The notes under the pieces: generated by a model | What the model saw: the letters and a program-made list of their open reading frames with translations, nothing else | Databases searched by the model: none | Told to the model about the DNA's origin: nothing | Assembly: GCA_964613865.1 (NCBI GenBank) | Contig: CAZTJM010000002.1 | Span: forward strand, 4,132 to 68,131 | Direction: 5' to 3' | DNA: 64,000 nucleotides | Origin: an uncultured Limnohabitans sp. | Lineage (GTDB): Bacteria; Bacteroidota; Bacteroidia; Cytophagales; Cyclobacteriaceae | Made by a program: the position numbers and the translations under genes | Part shown: in pieces, positions 16,312-26,280 of the stretch | How the letters are laid out: every line of letters begins with the position of its first letter | Numbering within the stretch: position 1 is the stretch's first letter

Positions 16312-19300
16312 ATGGCAACAAAAAACAAATCCCAAAATCAACCAGATCTTCATGAATTGGTAGTCATATTTAAAGATGACGCTCAAATCGAAACCAGTAA
16401 AAACACATTTAGAACGGCAAAAAGTACCGCCATTGGCACGCTGAACACCTCGATAAAAAGGCTAAAAAGCAAGGTTCAGCCGATCTTCAATCCCAAGATT
16501 GCGCTGAATGATATGCCGACGGAATTCAAGTCTTTTGCCCGATCGACACGCCTGAATCCCGCTTCTTTTTTCACTGTGCAGAGCGAATCCAACCTTGAAG
16601 GCTTGCTGGATGAATTCCTGAAAGATCCTTTGGTCGAGGGAGCCTATATCAAACCTCCGGCAGAAGATCCAAACAGCGCTTGGAAAAGTCCGGATTTCAC
16701 TGGAAATCAAGGCTATCTCGATGCCGCTCCCGGTGGTGTCGATGCAAAATTTTCATGGAAACTGGTCGGAGGTCGAGGCAATGGAATCGGTGTTGTCGAT
16801 GTCGAGCAAGGCTTTAACCTGACCCATGAGGACCTTCGAGCCAAGATCTCCAGTATCTTGGGAGGAAACAATGTGACTTCCTCCCGCAACCATGGAACGG
16901 CCGTCTTGGGTGTCATCGCAGGCGCTGAAAGTTCCATCGGGGTGACTGGAATAAGCTCCGATGTCCAACTCCGGGCCATTTCACACAACGGGCAAGGAAC
17001 CGCCCAAGCAATCATCAACGCAGCAAATGCCAGTAAAGCTGGAGATATCATATTGCTGGAAGTGCATCGAGCCGGGCCTGCGTTCAATTTTCAGGGACGG
17101 GATGATCAGCGCGGCTACATCGCCATCGAGTGGTGGCCAGACGATTTTGCAGCGGTTACTTACGCGACAGCCAAGGGAATCATTGTAGTGGAAGCGGCAG
17201 GCAACGGAATGGAAAATTTTGATCTGGAGATCTATAACAAAAGGCCTTCGGGCTGGCCAAATAGCTGGAAAAACCCTTTCAATCCTTCAAATCCCCAGTC
17301 CGGAGCTATCATAGTCGGGGCAGGCGCCTCCCCTTCCTCCTCCATGGACCGAAGCATTTTGAGCTTCTCCAATTGGGGAAAACGCGTGGATGTCCAAGGC
17401 TGGGGACACAATGTAGCCACGACAGGCTATGGCAATATGCAGGGAGACAAATTTGTGTGCCTTAATCCAGCGAATAACTGGACCGTAGAAGCTGGCTATC
17501 CGAAATCTCCAATAGGTGCTGGTCCAGGCTTTCTAAGCGCGATGGGCAATGGAATCAGCGCTTCCTTTTGGTGTGACCACAACCAAAAGGTCTATTTCTT
17601 TAAAAAAGACGAGTACTATCGCGTAGACCCAAACAATGGATGGACGGTCGAGCCCGATTATCCAAAGCCCATTGCTGGCAACTGGCCAGGCATGCCGGCC
17701 GACTTTGCTAACGGGATAGACGCGGCTTTATGGAGCGACACCAACAAAAGAATTTACTTTTTCAAAGGAAACCAATATGTCAAGATAAATCCGTCGGTAA
17801 GCTGGAATGTGGAAGCTGGATATCCAAAGCCAATTTCTGGGAACTGGCCGGGATTCCCCGCCTCTTTTGCCAGCGGCGTCGATGCGGCTATCTACAGCTA
17901 CGTCAACAACAAAATCTACTTTTTCAAAGGAAACAAATATCTGAGAATCAACCCCTCCGTGTCATGGAATATGGAGGCTGGCTATCCAAAGACGATTAGC
18001 TCCAGTTGGCGCAACATGCCGTCAGAATTTAACAGAGGAGTCGATTCGGCACTTTGGGACAAAACGACAGACAAAGTATTCTTCCTTAAAACAGAAGATC
18101 TCTGGTACACGTCCTCTTTCAGCGGTACCTCGAGTGCATCCCCTGTCGTCACGGGATCCGTGGCCTGTATACAGGGCAGACTAAAAGCCCGCGGAAAATC
18201 GCTTTTGACCTCGGATGGGATGAGAAACCTCCTTCGAAACACCGGATCCCCCCAGCAGCGACTCAGCGGTAGCAATGAATCCAACGCCGACTCCAACTGG
18301 AGGGGCATTAATGCCTCCTTTGGCAGCGGCTTCGATGCATCCCTTTGGAACGGAAAGTCAAACAACATCTATTTCTTTAAAGGAAACCAATACGCGAAAG
18401 TTGATCCAGCCAATAACTGGAACATAGAACCCGGCTATCCCAAGCCGATCGAAGATAACTGGCCCGGCATGCCATCCAGCTTCCTTTCGGGGATCAACGC
18501 AGCGCTTTGGAGTGAGACAAACAAAAAAGTATACATGTTCAAGGGCAATGAGTTTATCCGCATAGACCCTTTCAATGGCTGGAATGTCGAACCCGGATAT
18601 CCAAAACCAATCGCTGGAAGTTGGCCGGGTTTTCCTGCTTCTTTCACGTCCGGGGTGAACGCCGCTCTTTACAGCAAAACCAACGGCAAAATCTATTTCT
18701 TCAAAGGAAGTGAATACATTCGAATCAACCCATCAGTGAGCTGGAATGTCGAGGCGGGTTATCCTAAGCCGATCGCTGGAAACTGGCCAGGAATGCCTGC
18801 AGATTTTGCTTCAGGCCTGGATGCGGCTACTTGGAGTGGAACCAACAACAAGATCTACTTTTTCAAAGGTGAGAAGTATGTGCGGATTTCCCCCCAAACG
18901 AGCTGGGACGTAGAGTCCGGGTATCCTCAGATCATTGCCAGACAGCGGATCGGCAATCGGCCAAATTTGAAACAAGTATTCCAAAACCTAAACCTGGATT
19001 CCAATTGGCCGGGTTTCCCCCAAAGTTTCGGTCAAGATCTCGACGCATCTCTTTGGAGCGACCCAAACAAAAAAGTTTATTTCTTCAAGGGAAGCCAATA
19101 CATCAAAGTCGATCCTTTCAACGATTGGGAAATGGAATCCGGATATCCAAAATCCATCTCTTCAGGCTGGCCAGGATTCCCCAGCACCTTTGCATCTGGG
19201 GTTGATGCTGCCATTTGGACCAAAACCAACGATAGGATCTACTTCTTCAAGGGTAGCCAGTACATTAAGGTTAATCCGGCAAGCGGCTGGGCAGTGGAAC

Positions 19301-19653
19301 CGGGGTATCCGAAACAAATAGCAGGAAATTGGCCTGGACTCCCTGCTTCATTCTCTTCAGGAATCGAAGCCGCGCTATGGTCTGGCACAAACAATAAGAT
19401 CTATTTCTTCAAAGGCAACCAATATGTGAGAATAGACCCGCTGAATGGCTGGAACATGGATAGTGGATACCCCAAAAACATTAATTCAGCGTGGAAGGGA
19501 ATGCCATCTACGTTCAACAGCGGCATCAACGCTGCCCTGTGGAACGGTAAATCCTCCAACATCTATTTCTTCAAAGGCTCACAGTACTTGAAGATCTTAC
19601 CAAATAACAATTGGACTATGGAAAAGGGATATCCTAGAGAAATCAGATCCTGA
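16312..19653 (+). CDS. S8 (subtilisin-like) serine peptidase with an N-terminal prodomain and 12 hemopexin-like repeats in three 4-blade blocks
   Basis: Catalytic motifs GVVDVEQG (Asp ~163), NHGTAVLG (His ~194), AAGNG (Asn ~298) and FSGTSSASP (Ser ~607). Twelve copies of NWPG(F/M)P..G(I/V)DAA.W...IYFFKG..Y..I.P...W.VE.GYPK.I. No signal peptide. Confidence 0.92.
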   Translation: MATKNKSQNQPDLHELVVIFKDDAQIETSKNTFRTAKSTAIGTLNTSIKRLKSKVQPIFNPKIALNDMPTEFKSFARSTRLNPASFFTVQSESNLEGLLDEFLKDPLVEGAYIKPPAEDPNSAWKSPDFTGNQGYLDAAPGGVDAKFSWKLVGGRGNGIGVVDVEQGFNLTHEDLRAKISSILGGNNVTSSRNHGTAVLGVIAGAESSIGVTGISSDVQLRAISHNGQGTAQAIINAANASKAGDIILLEVHRAGPAFNFQGRDDQRGYIAIEWWPDDFAAVTYATAKGIIVVEAAGNGMENFDLEIYNKRPSGWPNSWKNPFNPSNPQSGAIIVGAGASPSSSMDRSILSFSNWGKRVDVQGWGHNVATTGYGNMQGDKFVCLNPANNWTVEAGYPKSPIGAGPGFLSAMGNGISASFWCDHNQKVYFFKKDEYYRVDPNNGWTVEPDYPKPIAGNWPGMPADFANGIDAALWSDTNKRIYFFKGNQYVKINPSVSWNVEAGYPKPISGNWPGFPASFASGVDAAIYSYVNNKIYFFKGNKYLRINPSVSWNMEAGYPKTISSSWRNMPSEFNRGVDSALWDKTTDKVFFLKTEDLWYTSSFSGTSSASPVVTGSVACIQGRLKARGKSLLTSDGMRNLLRNTGSPQQRLSGSNESNADSNWRGINASFGSGFDASLWNGKSNNIYFFKGNQYAKVDPANNWNIEPGYPKPIEDNWPGMPSSFLSGINAALWSETNKKVYMFKGNEFIRIDPFNGWNVEPGYPKPIAGSWPGFPASFTSGVNAALYSKTNGKIYFFKGSEYIRINPSVSWNVEAGYPKPIAGNWPGMPADFASGLDAATWSGTNNKIYFFKGEKYVRISPQTSWDVESGYPQIIARQRIGNRPNLKQVFQNLNLDSNWPGFPQSFGQDLDASLWSDPNKKVYFFKGSQYIKVDPFNDWEMESGYPKSISSGWPGFPSTFASGVDAAIWTKTNDRIYFFKGSQYIKVNPASGWAVEPGYPKQIAGNWPGLPASFSSGIEAALWSGTNNKIYFFKGNQYVRIDPLNGWNMDSGYPKNINSAWKGMPSTFNSGINAALWNGKSSNIYFFKGSQYLKILPNNNWTMEKGYPREIRS

Positions 19654-19729
19654 ATCGAATCTGGCGAATGGATAGGCTTGAGCTGAAAACACCGTTTAAG
19701 CCTATCCTCGTTTGATTGCTATTATCACT

Positions 19730-20140
19730 ATGTATCATAAAATTCTTGCGCTTAGCATTGTCATCGCAGGTCTTATCTGCGGTGCTATCGCATTAATTTA
19801 TTCCCAAAATACCAAAACGATGAGTGCAGAAGCTATTCAACAAAACAGACATGAAATCATAGTTGTGCTCAAGCCAAGCAGTGGAGTGAGCGTAAAGATG
19901 GGAAGCTTCAGCTCGAGAGAAAGTAATCGAGTGGATAACATCAATCGCTTGTTGAAAGAATATGGCGGTGAGGTTCGCAGAATAGAAATCCCAGTCCCAA
20001 AAGAGTCCGCTCCTACATCCGAATATTATCAAATTTTCTATTCTGCAGACCCTAAAACTTTACTCGAAGCGCTAAAAGCAGAGGACTGGGTTGAGAGTGC
20101 CTATCTCAAGCCGAAATCTGAAGATCCGGATGGTTTTTAG
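19730..20140 (+). CDS. Small exported or membrane-anchored protein homologous to the prodomain of the adjacent S8 protease
   Basis: Hydrophobic N-terminus (ILALSIVIAGLICGAIALIY). HEIIVVLK aligns with HELVVIFK and WVESAYLKPKSEDP with LVEGAYIKPPAEDP. ATG at 19730 preferred to the track start at 19712. Confidence 0.8.
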   Translation: MYHKILALSIVIAGLICGAIALIYSQNTKTMSAEAIQQNRHEIIVVLKPSSGVSVKMGSFSSRESNRVDNINRLLKEYGGEVRRIEIPVPKESAPTSEYYQIFYSADPKTLLEALKAEDWVESAYLKPKSEDPDGF

Positions 20141-20233: not shown

Positions 20234-21592
20234 ATGATAATCGAAAGTGCCACTTCGTACTTTTTCACCCATCTCGGGATTTTGATTTCTGGTGAGAAAC
20301 CCGGAAAGGTGATTGGCATGCCCACTTCCGAGGTATACGCTGATTCGCAGTTGATCCAGCAGCTACTCGGAGTTTCAAAACACCATTTGGACAACGGAAT
20401 TCAGGCCCAAATTTATGCAGGCCCGGAAGATACGCTTGTGGTATTTTATCCCCATGTCGACGAAAAACTCGCGGCCAGTCTTTCGCAAAACCTAAAAGTT
20501 AACTCCTCAATATGGAATGATTTGACTGGAATCAACATCCATCCGAAAAAGGCATTGCTCGCTTTTGATTCGTGTGAAAAAAACCCTGTATTAAAAGCCT
20601 CGAATATTGAACTAAGTAAAGGAAGTCTCCTCGAGGCATGCATTGAAAAATCAGCCGAGAGCCAGCAATCACTAATTGGATTCATTTTTTCCTCAGGATT
20701 CCATCAGTCACTACAAAACAAAATCCCTCTTCCCGCAGGATTGGGTCTTTTGGCAGCCCAGACGGACTTTTTGATGAACAAAAATTCGGCAATGCAATTT
20801 TTAAACGCAGCAGGATTAAACACGGCAAAAACTTACATTTTCAACAGGTCCAACTTTTCATTATCCCAACTCAAAGGTCTTGAAACGCAGGAATACGTGT
20901 TCAAACCCGCCGGCGGAGCAGCTGGACTGGGATTATTTCCAAAAGGAAATACGGGAGCTAACACTGCACTTTTAAAGAAACATTTGGGTGATTTAGAACA
21001 GCAAGGCACCCTACCCGCCCACTTTCAGATCCAAGAATTTATCCCAGGGCCAGTATGGGGTGTCACGGGACTTTTTTTGCCTGGCAAAAAATGGAAAATT
21101 CTACAAGTACATAGCCAATGTATAGACGAACAGGGAAGGTTTACCGGAGGCAGATGGAGTCTTTCATTTCAAAACGAAAAACTGGCATTTGCAGAATCCC
21201 TGTTTTCGAAACTGTCAGAACACGAGCCTTTTGCATATACCGGCTTGATTGAATTTGATCTCGTTGGCGAGACGATCATCGAGGTAAATCCCAGAATCAC
21301 CGCCTCTTCTCCTATTGTTCATCTTCTTTCACTTGAAAACAGGATCAAAGCTCGTCTGGGAACCGATTTTCGGATAAACCAGCTAGATATCAACACCAAA
21401 GTCCAATTTCCTAGGCTGTCCGACAAACTTAGATCTGTCGCGCGACTCGTCAAAAAAACAAAAAGCGAAACTGGGATGCTTACCCTACCTCAAGGGATCA
21501 ATCCCATGGGAGCTTCCAGAGTACTTTTTGTCAACGATCAAGAAGATTCCCGCTACCAAAGGCAGTTTCTTAAGGAACTCGAACAGATCTAA
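20234..21592 (+). CDS. ATP-grasp fold ligase of unknown substrate
   Basis: VFKPAGGAAGLG, FQIQEFIPG, IEFDLV and IIEVNPRITAS motifs. Confidence 0.8.
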   Translation: MIIESATSYFFTHLGILISGEKPGKVIGMPTSEVYADSQLIQQLLGVSKHHLDNGIQAQIYAGPEDTLVVFYPHVDEKLAASLSQNLKVNSSIWNDLTGINIHPKKALLAFDSCEKNPVLKASNIELSKGSLLEACIEKSAESQQSLIGFIFSSGFHQSLQNKIPLPAGLGLLAAQTDFLMNKNSAMQFLNAAGLNTAKTYIFNRSNFSLSQLKGLETQEYVFKPAGGAAGLGLFPKGNTGANTALLKKHLGDLEQQGTLPAHFQIQEFIPGPVWGVTGLFLPGKKWKILQVHSQCIDEQGRFTGGRWSLSFQNEKLAFAESLFSKLSEHEPFAYTGLIEFDLVGETIIEVNPRITASSPIVHLLSLENRIKARLGTDFRINQLDINTKVQFPRLSDKLRSVARLVKKTKSETGMLTLPQGINPMGASRVLFVNDQEDSRYQRQFLKELEQI

Positions 21593-21683: not shown

Positions 21684-23336
21684 TTATTTCAATTTCCCCT
21701 CCGTATCGGTATAGTTACCGATAATCTGGGCTCCGCTATTGATCGTCACATCGCCATAGATGGTGATCGTATTTCCCTCTCCGACAAACTCGAGTGTGGC
21801 GCCGCTATTCAGCCTCAAGTCACCGTAGATCACGGTGCTGCCAGAGAGCTTTAGATAAGATTTGCTGTTGACGTTGATGGCGGTGTTCTTTTTATACTGG
21901 CCAAAAGCAAAGCTTCCGACTACCTGCATGACACCGTTGCTGTTGACATTTAGACTGCTCTCCACTGCCAAAGATCCACAGTAGAGCAGTTCTCCACCTA
22001 CATTGACATTTTTAAGGGAAGCCGCTCCTGCAAAAGCCATTCGCTCGTTTGAGTTGACATTCAGGTTACTGTTCCCGCTATATGCAGGAAGATCCTTACA
22101 AAGTTGCTCAGCGATATCTTCCATGGGAACGTTTATCTTAAGGACCTGTAACCCTCCGGCTCCAGTGGCGACAAAAACGAAGTTCTCTTCATTTCTGACG
22201 AAGTTGGACGAACCATCAAGATCTAGGATCCCCAAACTCTTAATATCGGAGGTGTTTTCGACGTTGGAGACAGAGATTCCCGCAGCTCCATTGGCCATGA
22301 ACAGCAGGGAATTGTCGACAGAAACCGCATTGGTGACAACGTCACCCGGATCGGTATCATCTGGGTTGATAGGAATAGGAAGCTTGCTGACCAATTGCCC
22401 ACTGCCCAGGCTGTAGATACCGGCGCCATTAGCGCCCTCAGACACATAGAGATTGTTGTCCGCTATAGCAATCGTCCTCTTCGCCTCCGGTGTGGCATCG
22501 TCTAAGTTTATTTTCAACAGTTCGGCCAAATTCGAAGGATTATAAACAATCGCTCCTTCGGTTCCACTGAGCACAGCCAGTTTATCACTACCGTAGGCAA
22601 CACTCCTCAAATCTTCTACCTCAACCTCTTGGCTTACATTTCCGGCAATATCCACTACTCCCAATATGCCCGGATTTCCAGTAGTTACCGCTGTAGAGCT
22701 ACTAAGCCCCGTTACATCGTTTGCAACGAAACCCGGAAGTGAAACAAATGAAAAATCAGAGGTAAACTTTCCGTTAGAAACAGAGACCCTGGCGAGGTTC
22801 GCCGGGGAACTTACGCCAAAGTCCCCATCCACGTCAACTGCCATTGCCAACTGTAGGGTACCATTCGAATATTGCAAGGAACTTACTTCCGCGTCCGTAA
22901 AAAGGGCCTGAGAAACAATTTTTGGTTTGTACGCATCGGAAATATCGAATATCTCCACGGCGCCCAAATACGTTTCCCCTTCCAAATTGTATCCAACGTA
23001 AGCATAGTTCCCATCAATGTCCACATGAGTCGCCCTTAGTTTTACCCCTTGATATTCAGGAGCTTCTACCTGTGAAATCAATACAATAGGCAGCTCTGAC
23101 GAACTTTCCAAAATCCTCCCCGCTGCTGCCTCCGGATCGATCAGCGTCACGACTCCACTACCATCAAGTTTGATACGCTCACTTAGCGTTTCACTGTCGG
23201 TCCGTATCAAAATTGACTGGGGATCTGAGCCCGAGTCTTCGCAGGAAATCAGCAGTAAAGCAGAAAGTGCCAAGCCGAGGCCAATACATTTTATCGCATT
23301 TTCTTTCGAATAGCCATTCTTGAAGTTCAAATACAT
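21684..23336 (-). CDS. Lipoprotein with an LVIVD-like beta-propeller and a C-terminal beta-helix-like domain
   Basis: Lipobox LLISC; blades such as HVDIDGNYAYVGY, AVEIFDIS and NFVFVATGAGGLQVL; C-terminal N/V/G-rich repeats (LNVNSN, LRLNSG, VTINSG). Confidence 0.7.
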   Translation of the reverse strand: MYLNFKNGYSKENAIKCIGLGLALSALLLISCEDSGSDPQSILIRTDSETLSERIKLDGSGVVTLIDPEAAAGRILESSSELPIVLISQVEAPEYQGVKLRATHVDIDGNYAYVGYNLEGETYLGAVEIFDISDAYKPKIVSQALFTDAEVSSLQYSNGTLQLAMAVDVDGDFGVSSPANLARVSVSNGKFTSDFSFVSLPGFVANDVTGLSSSTAVTTGNPGILGVVDIAGNVSQEVEVEDLRSVAYGSDKLAVLSGTEGAIVYNPSNLAELLKINLDDATPEAKRTIAIADNNLYVSEGANGAGIYSLGSGQLVSKLPIPINPDDTDPGDVVTNAVSVDNSLLFMANGAAGISVSNVENTSDIKSLGILDLDGSSNFVRNEENFVFVATGAGGLQVLKINVPMEDIAEQLCKDLPAYSGNSNLNVNSNERMAFAGAASLKNVNVGGELLYCGSLAVESSLNVNSNGVMQVVGSFAFGQYKKNTAINVNSKSYLKLSGSTVIYGDLRLNSGATLEFVGEGNTITIYGDVTINSGAQIIGNYTDTEGKLK

Positions 23337-23832: not shown

Positions 23833-26280
23833 TTAATTATGACGCCTTAGGGCTCTTTTCCACCAGGGAAGAACTACTTCTTCATGGTATCCATATGAGT
23901 TATTCCCATAACCGTAACCGTATCCGTAACCATAGCCATAGCCATAGCCCTTGTCAATATGAAGGTCATTGAACACTCCGTAAATTTTGGATACGCCACC
24001 TTTTTCAACAAGGTTATTTAGGATTTGGCTATTCCCCTTCATGGAATATCCCTGACGGAACACATAGAAATTCACGTCTGCAAATCCAAATAGCTCCTTT
24101 GTCTCGGACACCAACCCTACAGGAGGGCAGTCAAAAACAACCACATCATACTCTTCCTTTAATCCATTAACGATCATCCTAAATTTATCCTGCAATAGCA
24201 ATTCAGCGGGGTTTGGTGGAACCGGGCCAGAGAGGATCACGTCCAGATTTTCATAGCCTGATGGTTTGACCACGTCCTTCCAGGAAACATTGCTGCTCAG
24301 ACATGTACTCATGCCTTTGTCGTTGACCATGTTAAAATCATCTGCAATTCTTGGTTTCCTCAGATCAAGACCCACCAAAATGGTTTTCTTTCCCATCAAA
24401 GCAAATACAGAAGCCATATTCATCGAAACAAAAGTTTTTCCTTCTCCCGAAATACTTGAGGTAAAGAGTAGGGAGAGATTCTTTTTTTGAGGGCTCAAAT
24501 ATGTTAGATCAGCACGAAGAGAGCGAAAGGATTCCGTTACTGAAGATCTTGGACTATTAAATACCGGGAGAGAATCTTCTGATGTACTTCTTCCAATCAT
24601 CCCTATCAAGGGAACTTTGATCTGCTTTTCCAACTCTTTTGGATCTTCAATCTTAGTGTTTAAAAAGTCCTTTACAGTGATGAAGCCAATCGGCAACATC
24701 ATACCGAGAATAAGGCCAATCAACAAATTGAGCGAACGCTTAGGGGCTACAGGTAACTGTCCTGACTTGGCATAATCCAAAACACTGTTTTTTGGCATAT
24801 TGGCGGCCTTGGTGATCTCCGCCTCTGCCTTTTTCTGGAGTAGATAGACGTAGATATTCTCGTTGATGGAAAACTGGCGCTGAATCGAGAGGAGGTTTCT
24901 CTCCGTCTGAGGCAGTGAGTTCACGTCCCGCTCTATCATGCTGATGCGATTGTTCAAATCAGCTAGCACATCCTGGGTATTCTGCGCGGCAAGATTGACG
25001 TTTTCCTCCAACGCTCTTTTCGCATTCTGTACTCGGCTGGCGTTCTCTCGCACGACGGGGGTTTGGTCAGTGAAATTTGCCTTCAATCGAGATTGCTCCG
25101 CTTGCAATTCGCTGAGGGACTGCACTAAAGAGTTCAAAAGTGGATCCGTGATCCCAATCACCGAAGGTGCTACCAAATCCGCCTCCTGATTGTTCGCCAA
25201 ATAGGTCTGAAGAGTCTTGTAATATTTCAGGGTAACCTCTGTCTGCGCTTTCTCCTTCTCCAATTCCTGAAGTCGCTCAAATATGACGGCGCCCTCTTCG
25301 GAAAGATTAAATACTCTATTCTCCGTCCTATATTGCTGCAGCCTATTTTCGGAATATCTCAGCGAGTCAGTAATTCCACTAAGTTGTTGATCTATAAACA
25401 GGACTGTGTTCTCGGACGCTCTGTTCTTTTCGTCAAGCTCGCGCTGAAGGTACATATCCATCAGCTTGTTTACATAATCCTGGCCAAGTCGGCGTACAGG
25501 AGTCTCCAAACTTAGCGTAAGAATGGAAGCTTGCTTATTGATGGGAGTTACGGCCAGCTCCTCGCGGAATTTTAGTGCCAAGGATGGAGTATCGGAGACT
25601 TTAAACAGAATCTCGTCTCCAGGTAAGGCATTGATCAAGTCAATCTTAAACGAATAATTCTCACCGGAAACCACCTCTCCAAAAGAATAGACTTCCTGAA
25701 GTTCGAGTTTCCCTTCAAAGCTAGATTTGAAAAATTTATCAGAGGGGGAAAAGACGGCAAACCCCTCATCGATTACTGTCAAACTAAATGACCTATCATC
25801 AATAACCTCGATCTTAAACATCCCCCCTACCAGCTGTGGCTGAGTCCAATCCACGGTCACCAGGACCGGAACGCGACCATACAGCTGGGTGCTGGTGAAT
25901 AAATCTTCCTGAAAATATTGAACATTGAGGCCGAGTGCATTAATAGTCTGCTCAGCCAAAGAATATGACTTTAGAATCCCGATTTCATTTTCAATGTTGT
26001 TTTTGCCCTGTAACATGCCCAATCCGCTGGATTCAAAGAGGTCCGTGCCCAAACTTGGTTTATCGTCGGCGACTAGGATACTTGACTCGACTTTGTAGAC
26101 CGGCGTGGTATAACGATTAAAAAGGAAAGCCGCAATAACGCCTACCGCCATGAAAATCAGGATTATTGGCCAATATTGAAGATAATTGAAGATGATCACC
26201 TTCAAATCAATCTCGTCCTCCTGGTTGACCATGAAAGGGGATTGGGCACTGGAATTTACTTGGGGAGAATTGGGATACAT
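23833..26280 (-). CDS. wzc: Polysaccharide co-polymerase / BY tyrosine autokinase (Wzc/GumC)
   Basis: Two TM segments around a coiled-coil periplasmic domain; Walker A TSSISGEGKT, A' LDLRKP, B VVFDCPP; C-terminal Tyr cluster GYGYGYGYGYGYG. Confidence 0.95.
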   Translation of the reverse strand: MYPNSPQVNSSAQSPFMVNQEDEIDLKVIIFNYLQYWPIILIFMAVGVIAAFLFNRYTTPVYKVESSILVADDKPSLGTDLFESSGLGMLQGKNNIENEIGILKSYSLAEQTINALGLNVQYFQEDLFTSTQLYGRVPVLVTVDWTQPQLVGGMFKIEVIDDRSFSLTVIDEGFAVFSPSDKFFKSSFEGKLELQEVYSFGEVVSGENYSFKIDLINALPGDEILFKVSDTPSLALKFREELAVTPINKQASILTLSLETPVRRLGQDYVNKLMDMYLQRELDEKNRASENTVLFIDQQLSGITDSLRYSENRLQQYRTENRVFNLSEEGAVIFERLQELEKEKAQTEVTLKYYKTLQTYLANNQEADLVAPSVIGITDPLLNSLVQSLSELQAEQSRLKANFTDQTPVVRENASRVQNAKRALEENVNLAAQNTQDVLADLNNRISMIERDVNSLPQTERNLLSIQRQFSINENIYVYLLQKKAEAEITKAANMPKNSVLDYAKSGQLPVAPKRSLNLLIGLILGMMLPIGFITVKDFLNTKIEDPKELEKQIKVPLIGMIGRSTSEDSLPVFNSPRSSVTESFRSLRADLTYLSPQKKNLSLLFTSSISGEGKTFVSMNMASVFALMGKKTILVGLDLRKPRIADDFNMVNDKGMSTCLSSNVSWKDVVKPSGYENLDVILSGPVPPNPAELLLQDKFRMIVNGLKEEYDVVVFDCPPVGLVSETKELFGFADVNFYVFRQGYSMKGNSQILNNLVEKGGVSKIYGVFNDLHIDKGYGYGYGYGYGYGYGNNSYGYHEEVVLPWWKRALRRHN

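Follow-up and report, generated by a model that had tools for sequence, protein, structure and literature searches.

A free paralogue of a subtilase prodomain encoded beside its S8 protease in Bacteroidota and other bacterial phyla: a candidate cognate regulator or inhibitor

To our knowledge, the stand-alone mimics of a prodomain that inhibit subtilases all come from eukaryotes, and only a handful of cases have been described. In Streptococcus pyogenes, a small gene next to that of the protease SpeB reportedly encodes a homologue of the prosegment, Spi, which inhibits the protease; SpeB is said to be a papain-like cysteine protease (family C10, not S8), and Spi a cytoplasmic protein that guards against prematurely active secreted enzyme. 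Here, a 64,000-nucleotide stretch of DNA from an uncultured member of the Cyclobacteriaceae (contig CAZTJM010000002.1; hereafter the window) was analysed with respect to a small open reading frame (ORF), which by sequence comparison encodes a separate paralogue of the N-terminal prodomain of the neighbouring S8 (subtilisin-family) protease.

MEROPS family I9 and its mimics include yeast PBI2, Pleurotus POIA1, Arabidopsis SPI-1, Toxoplasma MIC5 (TgMIC5) and Plasmodium SUB1-ProM, and all stand-alone prodomain mimics that have been characterised inhibit subtilases potently and, as a rule, selectively (PMC6993865). The mimics' C-terminal tail is expected in the non-prime subsites of the enzyme; in known prodomain complexes the last strand and tail form the portion that reaches the cleft, and in BPN' two acidic residues past the last strand, Glu69 and Asp71, cap two helices of the catalytic domain (PMC6993865). 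A second group of described loci involves ATP-grasp ligases. Makarova et al. 2022 delineated a ‘branch 8’ of these enzymes, found together with peptidases from various families and with an inactive, truncated ATP-grasp, for which no precursor could be predicted, and stated that all characterised graspetides are protease inhibitors (PMC8939145). The text of that study and the supplements consulted contain no mention of subtilisin or subtilase, S8 peptidases or a prodomain-like small protein, and literature searches returned no paper on a bacterial S8 protease with a stand-alone prodomain or with an ATP-grasp.

The small protein and the protease prodomain

The small ORF (19730–20140, plus strand, 136 aa) opens with an ATG at 19730 and closes with a TAG stop codon at 20138–20140; this ATG was preferred over an alternative TTG at 19712 because it is the start kept in relatives. 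The ORF begins 76 bp 3' of the protease ORF (16312–19653) and ends 93 bp 5' of an ATP-grasp ORF (20234–21592), just where it had been placed by an earlier reading of the bare letters (the sequence-only reading), which took it for a stand-alone copy of the protease's own prodomain and proposed profile–profile alignment as a check. In BLASTP, residues 37–134 of the small protein aligned to residues 10–121 of the 1113-aa protease with 22% identity (E = 6e-9), and all three blocks of similarity singled out by eye in that reading (HEIIVVLK/HELVVIFK, EYYQI/SFFTV and the LLEALKAEDWVESAYLKPKSEDP block) were recovered. Alignments of 61 stand-alone proteins (A1) and of 76 protease N-domains (A2) were built separately, and their comparison in hhalign gave a strong match (probability 99.4%, E = 5.2e-21, 99 columns). 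As judged from these alignments, the similarity is far above chance, and BLASTP and hhalign together bear out that the small ORF is a free-standing copy of the neighbouring protease's N-terminal domain.

The protease itself (16312–19653, plus strand) matches Pfam Peptidase_S8 (1.3e-13) and Hemopexin (1e-136, 11 repeats), and begins with a prodomain, which is followed by an S8 catalytic domain that hemopexin propellers interrupt and, at the C-terminus, by one more propeller. Its catalytic residues D163, H194, N298 and S607 are invariant in an alignment of 73 sequences (A3). The N-terminal domain (aa 10–121; 16339–16674, plus strand), which was recognised by BLASTP and hhalign and would serve as the in-cis prodomain, ends in the motif VEGAYIKPPAEDP.

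An AlphaFold2 (AF2) model of the small protein, computed with A1, reached a mean predicted local distance difference test (pLDDT) score of 87.8, with values >90 across the domain. It comprises a helix (residues 2–37), a strand (41–47), a hairpin (53–62), a helix (66–77), two strands (81–85 and 98–104), a helix (108–116) and a last strand (121–127). In the model of protease residues 1–680 (pLDDT 85), the same order of elements was seen in residues 15–114 with one helix added: strand 15–20, hairpin 26–35, helix 42–50, strand 54–57, the extra helix 70–78, strand 86–90, helix 95–104 and strand 108–114, followed by a linker at 118–121 with pLDDT below 50. In both models the order of fold elements is I9-like, and the protease N-domain also has the position of an I9 domain, as the N-terminal pro-region of an S8 catalytic domain. 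When the protease model was used as a Foldseek query, two precursors in single-chain, unprocessed form, pro-subtilisin E (3whi) and pro-Tk-subtilisin (2z2z, 2e1p and mutants), ranked above most mature subtilisins, with alignment lengths of 388–413 columns versus ~247 for the mature enzymes. These longer alignments are consistent with the modelled N-domain aligning to the I9 prodomains of the precursors.

The hydrophobic N-terminus of the small protein (aa 1–27; 19730–19810, plus strand) reads MYHK-ILALSIVIAGLIC-GAIALIY, where the hydrophobic stretch ILALSIVIAGLI is followed by Cys17, and represents a putative lipoprotein signal or, alternatively, a signal anchor. A Cys follows the hydrophobic stretch in three Algoriphagus (GLIC in the window, ILSC in A. 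terrigena and VLLC in A. oliviformis), and orthologues from Flavobacteriia have clear lipoboxes (LSC, VSC, INC, TQC); the N-terminus is probably a lipoprotein-type signal peptide. The difference between this hydrophobic start and that of the protease, which begins MATKNKSQNQ and carries no such element, had been pointed out from the letters alone and is real. A folded domain follows (19841–20110, plus strand), supported by pLDDT >90 and by the profile match to the protease N-domains, and then a free C-terminal tail, KPKSEDPDGF with the stop codon (20111–20140, plus strand), made up of a KPxxExP motif and three residues ending in Phe. The protein does end three residues past EDP, as previously read.

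The last strand and the tail, V-[ED]-[AG]-A-Y-[VI]-K-P-x-x-E-x-P, are the most conserved element common to copies and N-domains, with A124, Y125, K127, P128 and P133 conserved in at least 90% of the 61 stand-alone proteins. Most copies from outside Bacteroidota stop right at the motif (...KPPDELP, ...KPEGEPPG, ...KPPDGPP), and those of Bacteroidota extend 2–6 residues further, often with a hydrophobic end (EDPDGF, EEPDL, EDPGM, EEADF) that comes 2–3 residues past EDP/EEP. This terminal Phe, Leu, Met or Ile is about level with a hydrophobic residue of the protease linker, the protease counterpart continuing as EDPNSAW...SPDF (EDPNSAWKSPDF in the Algoriphagus protease). Past the tail motif, the proteases have two hydrophobic residues, a variable low-complexity linker of 10–35 residues and then PDF-x-x-R-Q-G-Y-L-D-A-A-P, the conserved start of the catalytic domain. 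The tail of the small protein is flexible in the AF2 model (pLDDT 69) and is a candidate for the part that binds the active-site cleft.

Compared with its counterpart in A. aestuariicola, the copy shows 85% identity and a ratio of non-synonymous to synonymous substitution rates (dN/dS) of 0.49. The corresponding dN/dS values in the protease were 0.08 for the N-domain and 0.013 for the S8 core (99% identity); the whole window protease matches that of A. aestuariicola at 98%, and identity between proteases across phyla is 42–48%. The small gene is under purifying selection yet fast-evolving, much faster than its target.

Distribution and genomic context of the pair

A word-based protein search with the small protein returned four close relatives only, all from Algoriphagus-like genomes and all at the same locus. 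A survey sample of 80 loci was fetched by relatedness to the first 375 residues of the protease, and covered Bacteroidota, Burkholderiales and other Proteobacteria, Actinomycetota, Acidobacteriota, Chloroflexota, Nitrospirota, Planctomycetota, Verrucomicrobiota and one Methanosarcina metagenome-assembled genome (MAG). An iterated hidden Markov model (HMM) search seeded by the small-protein domain converged on 82 protease N-termini and 64 small ORFs. The N-domain stands ahead of the S8 core in all 81 proteases, and in 64 of the 81 loci that encode an N-domain protease a stand-alone copy lies next to it; the taxa concerned include Bacteroidota, Burkholderiales, Actinomycetota, Acidobacteriota, Chloroflexota and Nitrospirota. 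The sequence-only reading had staked its proposal beforehand on co-occurrence with this S8 clade across genomes, and such co-occurrence is strongly in evidence. As judged from this distribution, the pairing is an old, widely distributed two-gene module of a pro-subtilase and a free prodomain-like protein.

No copy was found, even at E < 5, in 13 loci with sufficient flank (seven of them Streptomyces and one Nocardia); the other copy-less loci are cut by contig ends, apart from L043, which keeps a remnant. In this Pseudonocardiaceae MAG (L043:6860-7020) the copy end ...GVRAAYVKPGG is in frame with the protease ORF and the part upstream is out of frame, representing a fused or frameshifted remnant or an assembly error; the relative L047 has an intact copy. 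The Streptomyces loci (L069, L074–L076, L081, L085 and L088) have neither a stand-alone copy nor ATP-grasps, the tail of their prodomain has lost the Glu (KPGAVPA), and most of these proteases are followed instead by a conserved 500–960-aa protein of unknown family.

A profile search against 1.84 billion cluster representatives (clusters at 50% identity) gave 1,629 matches at E ≤ 0.001 and 937 at E ≤ 1e-10. Among the 150 matches listed, all were small (84–208 aa, mostly ~90 aa), and in most of them the domain reached the last residue. Cross-clade HMM scoring, which was aimed at a single-duplication origin of the stand-alone copies, had an ambiguous outcome: Bacteroidota copies scored 29 against foreign copies and 34 against foreign N-domains, with respective scores of 17 and 12 for non-Bacteroidota copies.

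Gene order and signals differ between clades. In Bacteroidota the copy lies directly 3' of the protease on the same strand, as it does in one gammaproteobacterial MAG whose protease is of Bacteroidota type; in other phyla it lies directly 5' on the same strand, ending shortly before the protease frame or overlapping its start, and in Burkholderiales it is upstream and divergent. Most Bacteroidota copies open with a lipoprotein-type signal (e.g. ...LGLSC, ...LVVSC, ...FMINC, ...FTQC), those of Cecembia and two MAGs being signal-less. No signal peptide was seen on non-Bacteroidota copies in the examined loci, where both partners look cytoplasmic; beyond these loci, the large family also includes a few copies that bear a signal or a membrane anchor.

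On the protease side, no signal peptide was found in the surveyed loci and there was no room for one, the N-termini being short, basic or hydrophilic; in the window this follows from the stop-to-stop frame, which opens just four codons before the ATG. Pfam revealed no trafficking domains on the protease (no PAAR, VgrG, RHS or LXG, and no C-terminal domain of the type IX secretion system). Between Asn298 and Ser607, a hemopexin propeller is inserted into the S8 catalytic domain, a feature near-universal among the sampled 1100-aa proteases; the catalytic domain is uninterrupted in the 900-aa forms of Tenacibaculum and Lutibacter and in the 600-aa forms of other phyla, and several non-Bacteroidota proteases carry different C-terminal modules, such as FG-GAP repeats in L058.

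Between the protease stop codon and the start of the small ORF, a strong RNA hairpin is predicted, followed by a U-rich stretch (19658–19717, plus strand; dG -29 kcal/mol, z = -5.0, none of 200 shuffles folding as well). Inverted repeats of differing sequence with T-runs, read by eye from alignments and not folded, occur at the same spot in three other Algoriphagus loci (A. terrigena, A. oliviformis and an Algoriphagus MAG). The hairpin, probably a terminator or attenuator, would uncouple the two genes: with it and its U-rich stretch between them, expression of protease and copy is probably not strictly coupled.

Beyond the ATP-grasp gene, the minus strand (21684–23336) encodes a protein of 550 aa that carries a lipoprotein signal (...LLLISC), matches nothing in Pfam or NCBIfam and is kept beside the module in A. 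terrigena and A. aestuariicola-like genomes. The minus strand also encodes, at 23833–26280, an 815-aa Wzz/tyrosine-kinase-like polysaccharide co-polymerase with a C-terminal GYGYGYGYGYGY tail, the gene of which adjoins a Poly_export gene in relatives.

Weighing the possible functions

We lean towards regarding the small protein as a cognate prodomain-mimic regulator or inhibitor, whose free tail (...EDPDGF) mimics that of a processed prodomain. We infer binding, entry of the tail into the cleft and inhibition. The free copy would dock on the catalytic domain at the site of the enzyme's own prodomain, and its unblocked tail, AYLKPKSEDPDGF-COOH, would run, in the manner of a cleaved product, along the cleft's non-prime side. 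Since the protein ends there, the tail would have no scissile bond, and the copy could therefore stay bound after the in-cis prodomain has been cut off and degraded, inhibiting or gating the enzyme as a dedicated, selective inhibitor or regulator. Given the lipoprotein-type signal in Algoriphagus and most Bacteroidota, the copy would act outside the cytoplasm in these organisms; in most other phyla it would be a cytoplasmic ~90-aa protein encoded directly 5' of the protease. This is the best-supported explanation, drawing on homology, fold, protein position, near-obligate synteny across phyla, the conserved strand and tail, the precise end of the protein and the fast evolution of the partner.

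Several observations weigh against it. With the isolated small-protein model as query, the best Foldseek match in the PDB was ribosomal protein S6 (E = 9e-4, template modelling score ~0.5, root-mean-square deviation 5–6 Å) and no I9 structure appeared among the first 50, so the fold alone is generic. Pfam gave no match at E ≤ 0.1 to either the small protein or the protease N-domain, the I9 profile PF05922 had no match in the whole genome (six relatives and two control genomes do match), and hhalign against eight canonical I9 domains was not significant (probability 1.4% for A1 and 0.1% for A2). In the register which we take to relate BPN' to these proteins, AY-V-E-E-D against AY-[VI]-K-P-x, the capping acids are replaced by an invariant Lys and a Pro, presumably Lys114 (invariant) and Pro115 (nearly so) in the proteases and Lys127 and Pro128 in the copies; the docking mode may therefore differ from that of I9. 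Outside Bacteroidota, the tail may not reach the catalytic Ser, as the copies stop at E-x-P(P), before a plausible P1 residue. The terminator-like hairpin between the genes is unlike the tight coupling expected of a protective antidote. Finally, there is an apparent compartment mismatch in the window, where the copy seems to be exported and the protease has no export signal. An action across compartments, as first suggested from the letters, fits the lipoprotein-like signal of the Bacteroidota copies; it does not extend to other phyla, where neither partner carries a signal.

The sequence-only reading had also set the domain beside the subtilisin propeptides (I9). The Pfam, PF05922 and hhalign results place its sequence outside I9, only topology and position being I9-like. 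NCBIfam and PADLOC assigned the small protein to no family, Pfam gave only sub-threshold ACT_4 and FtsX_ECD matches on ten typical family members, and a PDB sequence search with the N-domain profile returned nothing meaningful. In the absence of a match to Pfam I9, the domain constitutes a new sequence family, most aptly viewed as a new family of prodomains whose topology is I9-like.

A further explanation starts from the operon. All-against-all clustering of neighbouring ORFs revealed ATP-grasp ligases as the single recurrent theme, a link that the sequence-only reading of the pair had not drawn: 34 of the 61 non-redundant pair loci have ATP-grasp genes within the operon, and none was seen without the small ORF in loci where this could be judged. 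The ligase of the window (20234–21592, plus strand, 452 aa) is an orphan, with a match to Pfam ATP-grasp_3 (6e-7), MfnD as its sole notable NCBIfam match (2e-4), no PDB relative in a single-sequence search and 3df7 alone (0.003) in a profile search. Orthologues of it were present in 12 related loci, and this ~450-aa type is the operon partner in Algoriphagus, Lacihabitans, Mariniphaga, Cecembia and Rhodohalobacter, its conservation extending over several genomes of Cytophagia and Balneolia type. In 24 of the 61 pair loci, all outside Bacteroidota, the two genes directly 3' of the protease encode a ligase and a paralogue of it. This ligase (~320 aa) matches the ATP-grasp maturases of ribosomal peptides best, namely TIGR04187 at 1e-35 to 1e-44, which is below the family cut-off, as well as MvdC/MvdD, and in the PDB 7drm (6e-31) and, more weakly, the ligases of microviridin and chryseoviridin AMdnB (7m4s), 5ig9/5ig8 and CdnC (7mgv). 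The paralogue is shorter in several loci and has no Pfam or NCBIfam match, its relation to the ligase being seen in hhalign (96%). Such a paralogue and a graspetide-maturase-like ATP-grasp after the protease were observed in loci of the range L034–L091 (e.g. L083:10044-11734 and L050:8733-10657).

The window ATP-grasp had no significant hhalign match to the graspetide-type ligases, which take its place in the operon in other phyla; a graspetide-type maturase beside the gene is lacking in the window and present in the 24 non-Bacteroidota relatives. We infer from architecture rather than from shared accessions that the latter loci correspond to branch 8 of PMC8939145. About 44% of pair loci (among them those of Flavobacteriia and many from Acidobacteriota, Chloroflexota and Nitrospirota) have no ATP-grasp within 7 kb, and the tail motif showed no clear difference between loci with and without one. 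Because many pair loci are devoid of an ATP-grasp and the two ligase types are unrelated, the pair is the core of the module and the ligase a frequent accessory drawn from two unrelated families.

With these partners, the small protein could instead be a substrate or scaffold of the operon ligase, its tail Y-x-K-P-x-x-E-x-P-COOH being modified post-translationally, either by a Lys–Glu/Asp side-chain lactam as in graspetides or by C-terminal ligation of the kind that RimK performs on S6. The prodomain-like body would then be a recognition (‘leader’) element, and the protease would process the product or be inhibited by it. S6 is a ferredoxin-like protein with a flexible C-terminal tail, which is extended by the ATP-grasp ligase RimK. 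We consider a substrate role unlikely, although it is compatible with the inhibitor model. In its favour, the ligase occurs at 34 of 61 loci and was not seen without the small ORF in loci that allowed a judgement, the non-Bacteroidota ligases are closest to graspetide maturases (TIGR04187, 7drm), S6 is the best Foldseek match, and the tail has a near-invariant Lys and Asp/Glu (Thr for Lys in some Actinomycetota copies). The four packed genes leave no room for another precursor, in keeping with the precursor-less, peptidase-linked branch 8, and the characterised graspetides are all protease inhibitors (PMC8939145). What lowers its probability is that the tail motif is the same in the ~44% of loci without a ligase and that the window ATP-grasp is of a type other than the graspetide one, hhalign showing no relation between the two families. 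The conserved Lys and Glu/Asp are likewise present in the protease's own prodomain, so the conservation of the motif may be purely structural; in addition, one copy (L036) has Arg for Lys, and no leader or core motif typical of graspetides was identified.

A more specific version, which we hold to be less probable again, casts the copies as the missing substrates of the peptidase-linked ATP-grasps, with the Lys cross-linked to Glu/Asp in the tail or the C-terminus built upon, to give a ‘protein-sized graspetide’. The product would be a covalently constrained, uncleavable inhibitor or switch of the cognate intracellular subtilase, a proposal that we rate as equally improbable, and the same low probability attaches to an unrelated ATP-grasp having taken over this job in Algoriphagus.

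Somewhat further down the scale, the copy might act as a homotypic adaptor or anchor, pairing with the protease N-domain by sheet-to-sheet dimerisation in the manner of ACT-like ferredoxin folds and thereby tethering or localising the enzyme, for instance at the membrane in Bacteroidota, or recruiting it to the ligase. Ferredoxin-like domains commonly dimerise, both partners contain the same domain, sub-threshold ACT_4 and FtsX_ECD matches were noted above, and the Bacteroidota copies are predicted to be lipid- or membrane-anchored. We nevertheless think this improbable: the most conserved shared part is the C-terminal strand and tail rather than a dimer edge, the strict end of the protein right past the tail motif would go unexplained, and the majority of the family, being soluble and ~90 aa long, has nothing to which it could be anchored.

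Homology to the prodomain would also suit a trans-acting folding chaperone or activator, which aids folding of the catalytic domain or displaces the in-cis prodomain to trigger activation. This role is more doubtful still, and looks redundant because every protease in the 81 loci keeps its own full N-domain; moreover, the copy here apparently leaves the cytoplasm, in which the protease folds, and fast evolution is atypical of a folding template. The effector–immunity pair to which the sequence-only reading had likened the module, with a signal-less protease delivered to rivals and an exported lipoprotein copy guarding the producer's periplasm, is the least probable explanation: the order of an effector without Sec signal and then an immunity gene with lipoprotein signal, as in periplasm-acting pairs, holds for the Bacteroidota branch and the small partner does evolve fast, but outside Bacteroidota neither partner has a signal in the examined loci (a few signal-bearing copies exist beyond these loci), the protease is extremely conserved rather than polymorphic (99% in the core between species, 42–48% across phyla), Pfam found no trafficking domains and PADLOC no defence-system matches, and a search of the genome (95% complete) for the sheath gene of the type VI secretion system, TssC, found none.

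Significance and comparison with known systems

Through the operon link to ATP-grasps, the copies become a concrete candidate for the substrate that PMC8939145 left open for the peptidase-associated, precursor-less ligases of graspetide type. What is new is a large bacterial family of ~1,600 clusters at 50% identity with no Pfam or NCBIfam match, consisting of true paralogues of the target's prodomain that are encoded almost always beside the target and for the most part end at the fixed C-terminal motif AAY[VI]KPxxExP. If its members are inhibitors, they would represent a widespread means by which a subtilase that is intracellular, or exported by an unconventional route, is held latent, and would provide ready-made selective inhibitors for an unstudied S8 clade.

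Among described systems, S6 with RimK differs in several respects: the weak structural match fits a generic fold, no S6 sequence signature is present, and the tail here is Pro-rich, that of S6 being poly-acidic. Relative to what is reported of SpeB and Spi, the signal logic is reversed in Bacteroidota, and elsewhere both partners appear to be cytoplasmic. In branch 8, one operon encodes a peptidase together with a full ATP-grasp and its truncated paralogue, and no precursor can be recognised (PMC8939145); the same layout is found in the non-Bacteroidota relatives, whereas the ATP-grasp of the window itself belongs to another, orphan family.

The family described here differs from the stand-alone mimics of eukaryotes in being bacterial, in spanning many phyla, in being usually signal-less and in its frequent association with ATP-grasp ligases. 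It is a paralogue of the prodomain of its own target, whereas several known mimics have no sequence similarity to any prodomain; unlike I9 mimics, it has no I9 profile match and, by the register assumed above, no capping acids. The function proposed for it, inhibition of a subtilase, would nonetheless be like that of PBI2, POIA1, SPI-1, TgMIC5 and SUB1-ProM. The last of these is encoded beside its target subtilase and carries a signal sequence (PMC6993865), as most Bacteroidota copies appear to do.

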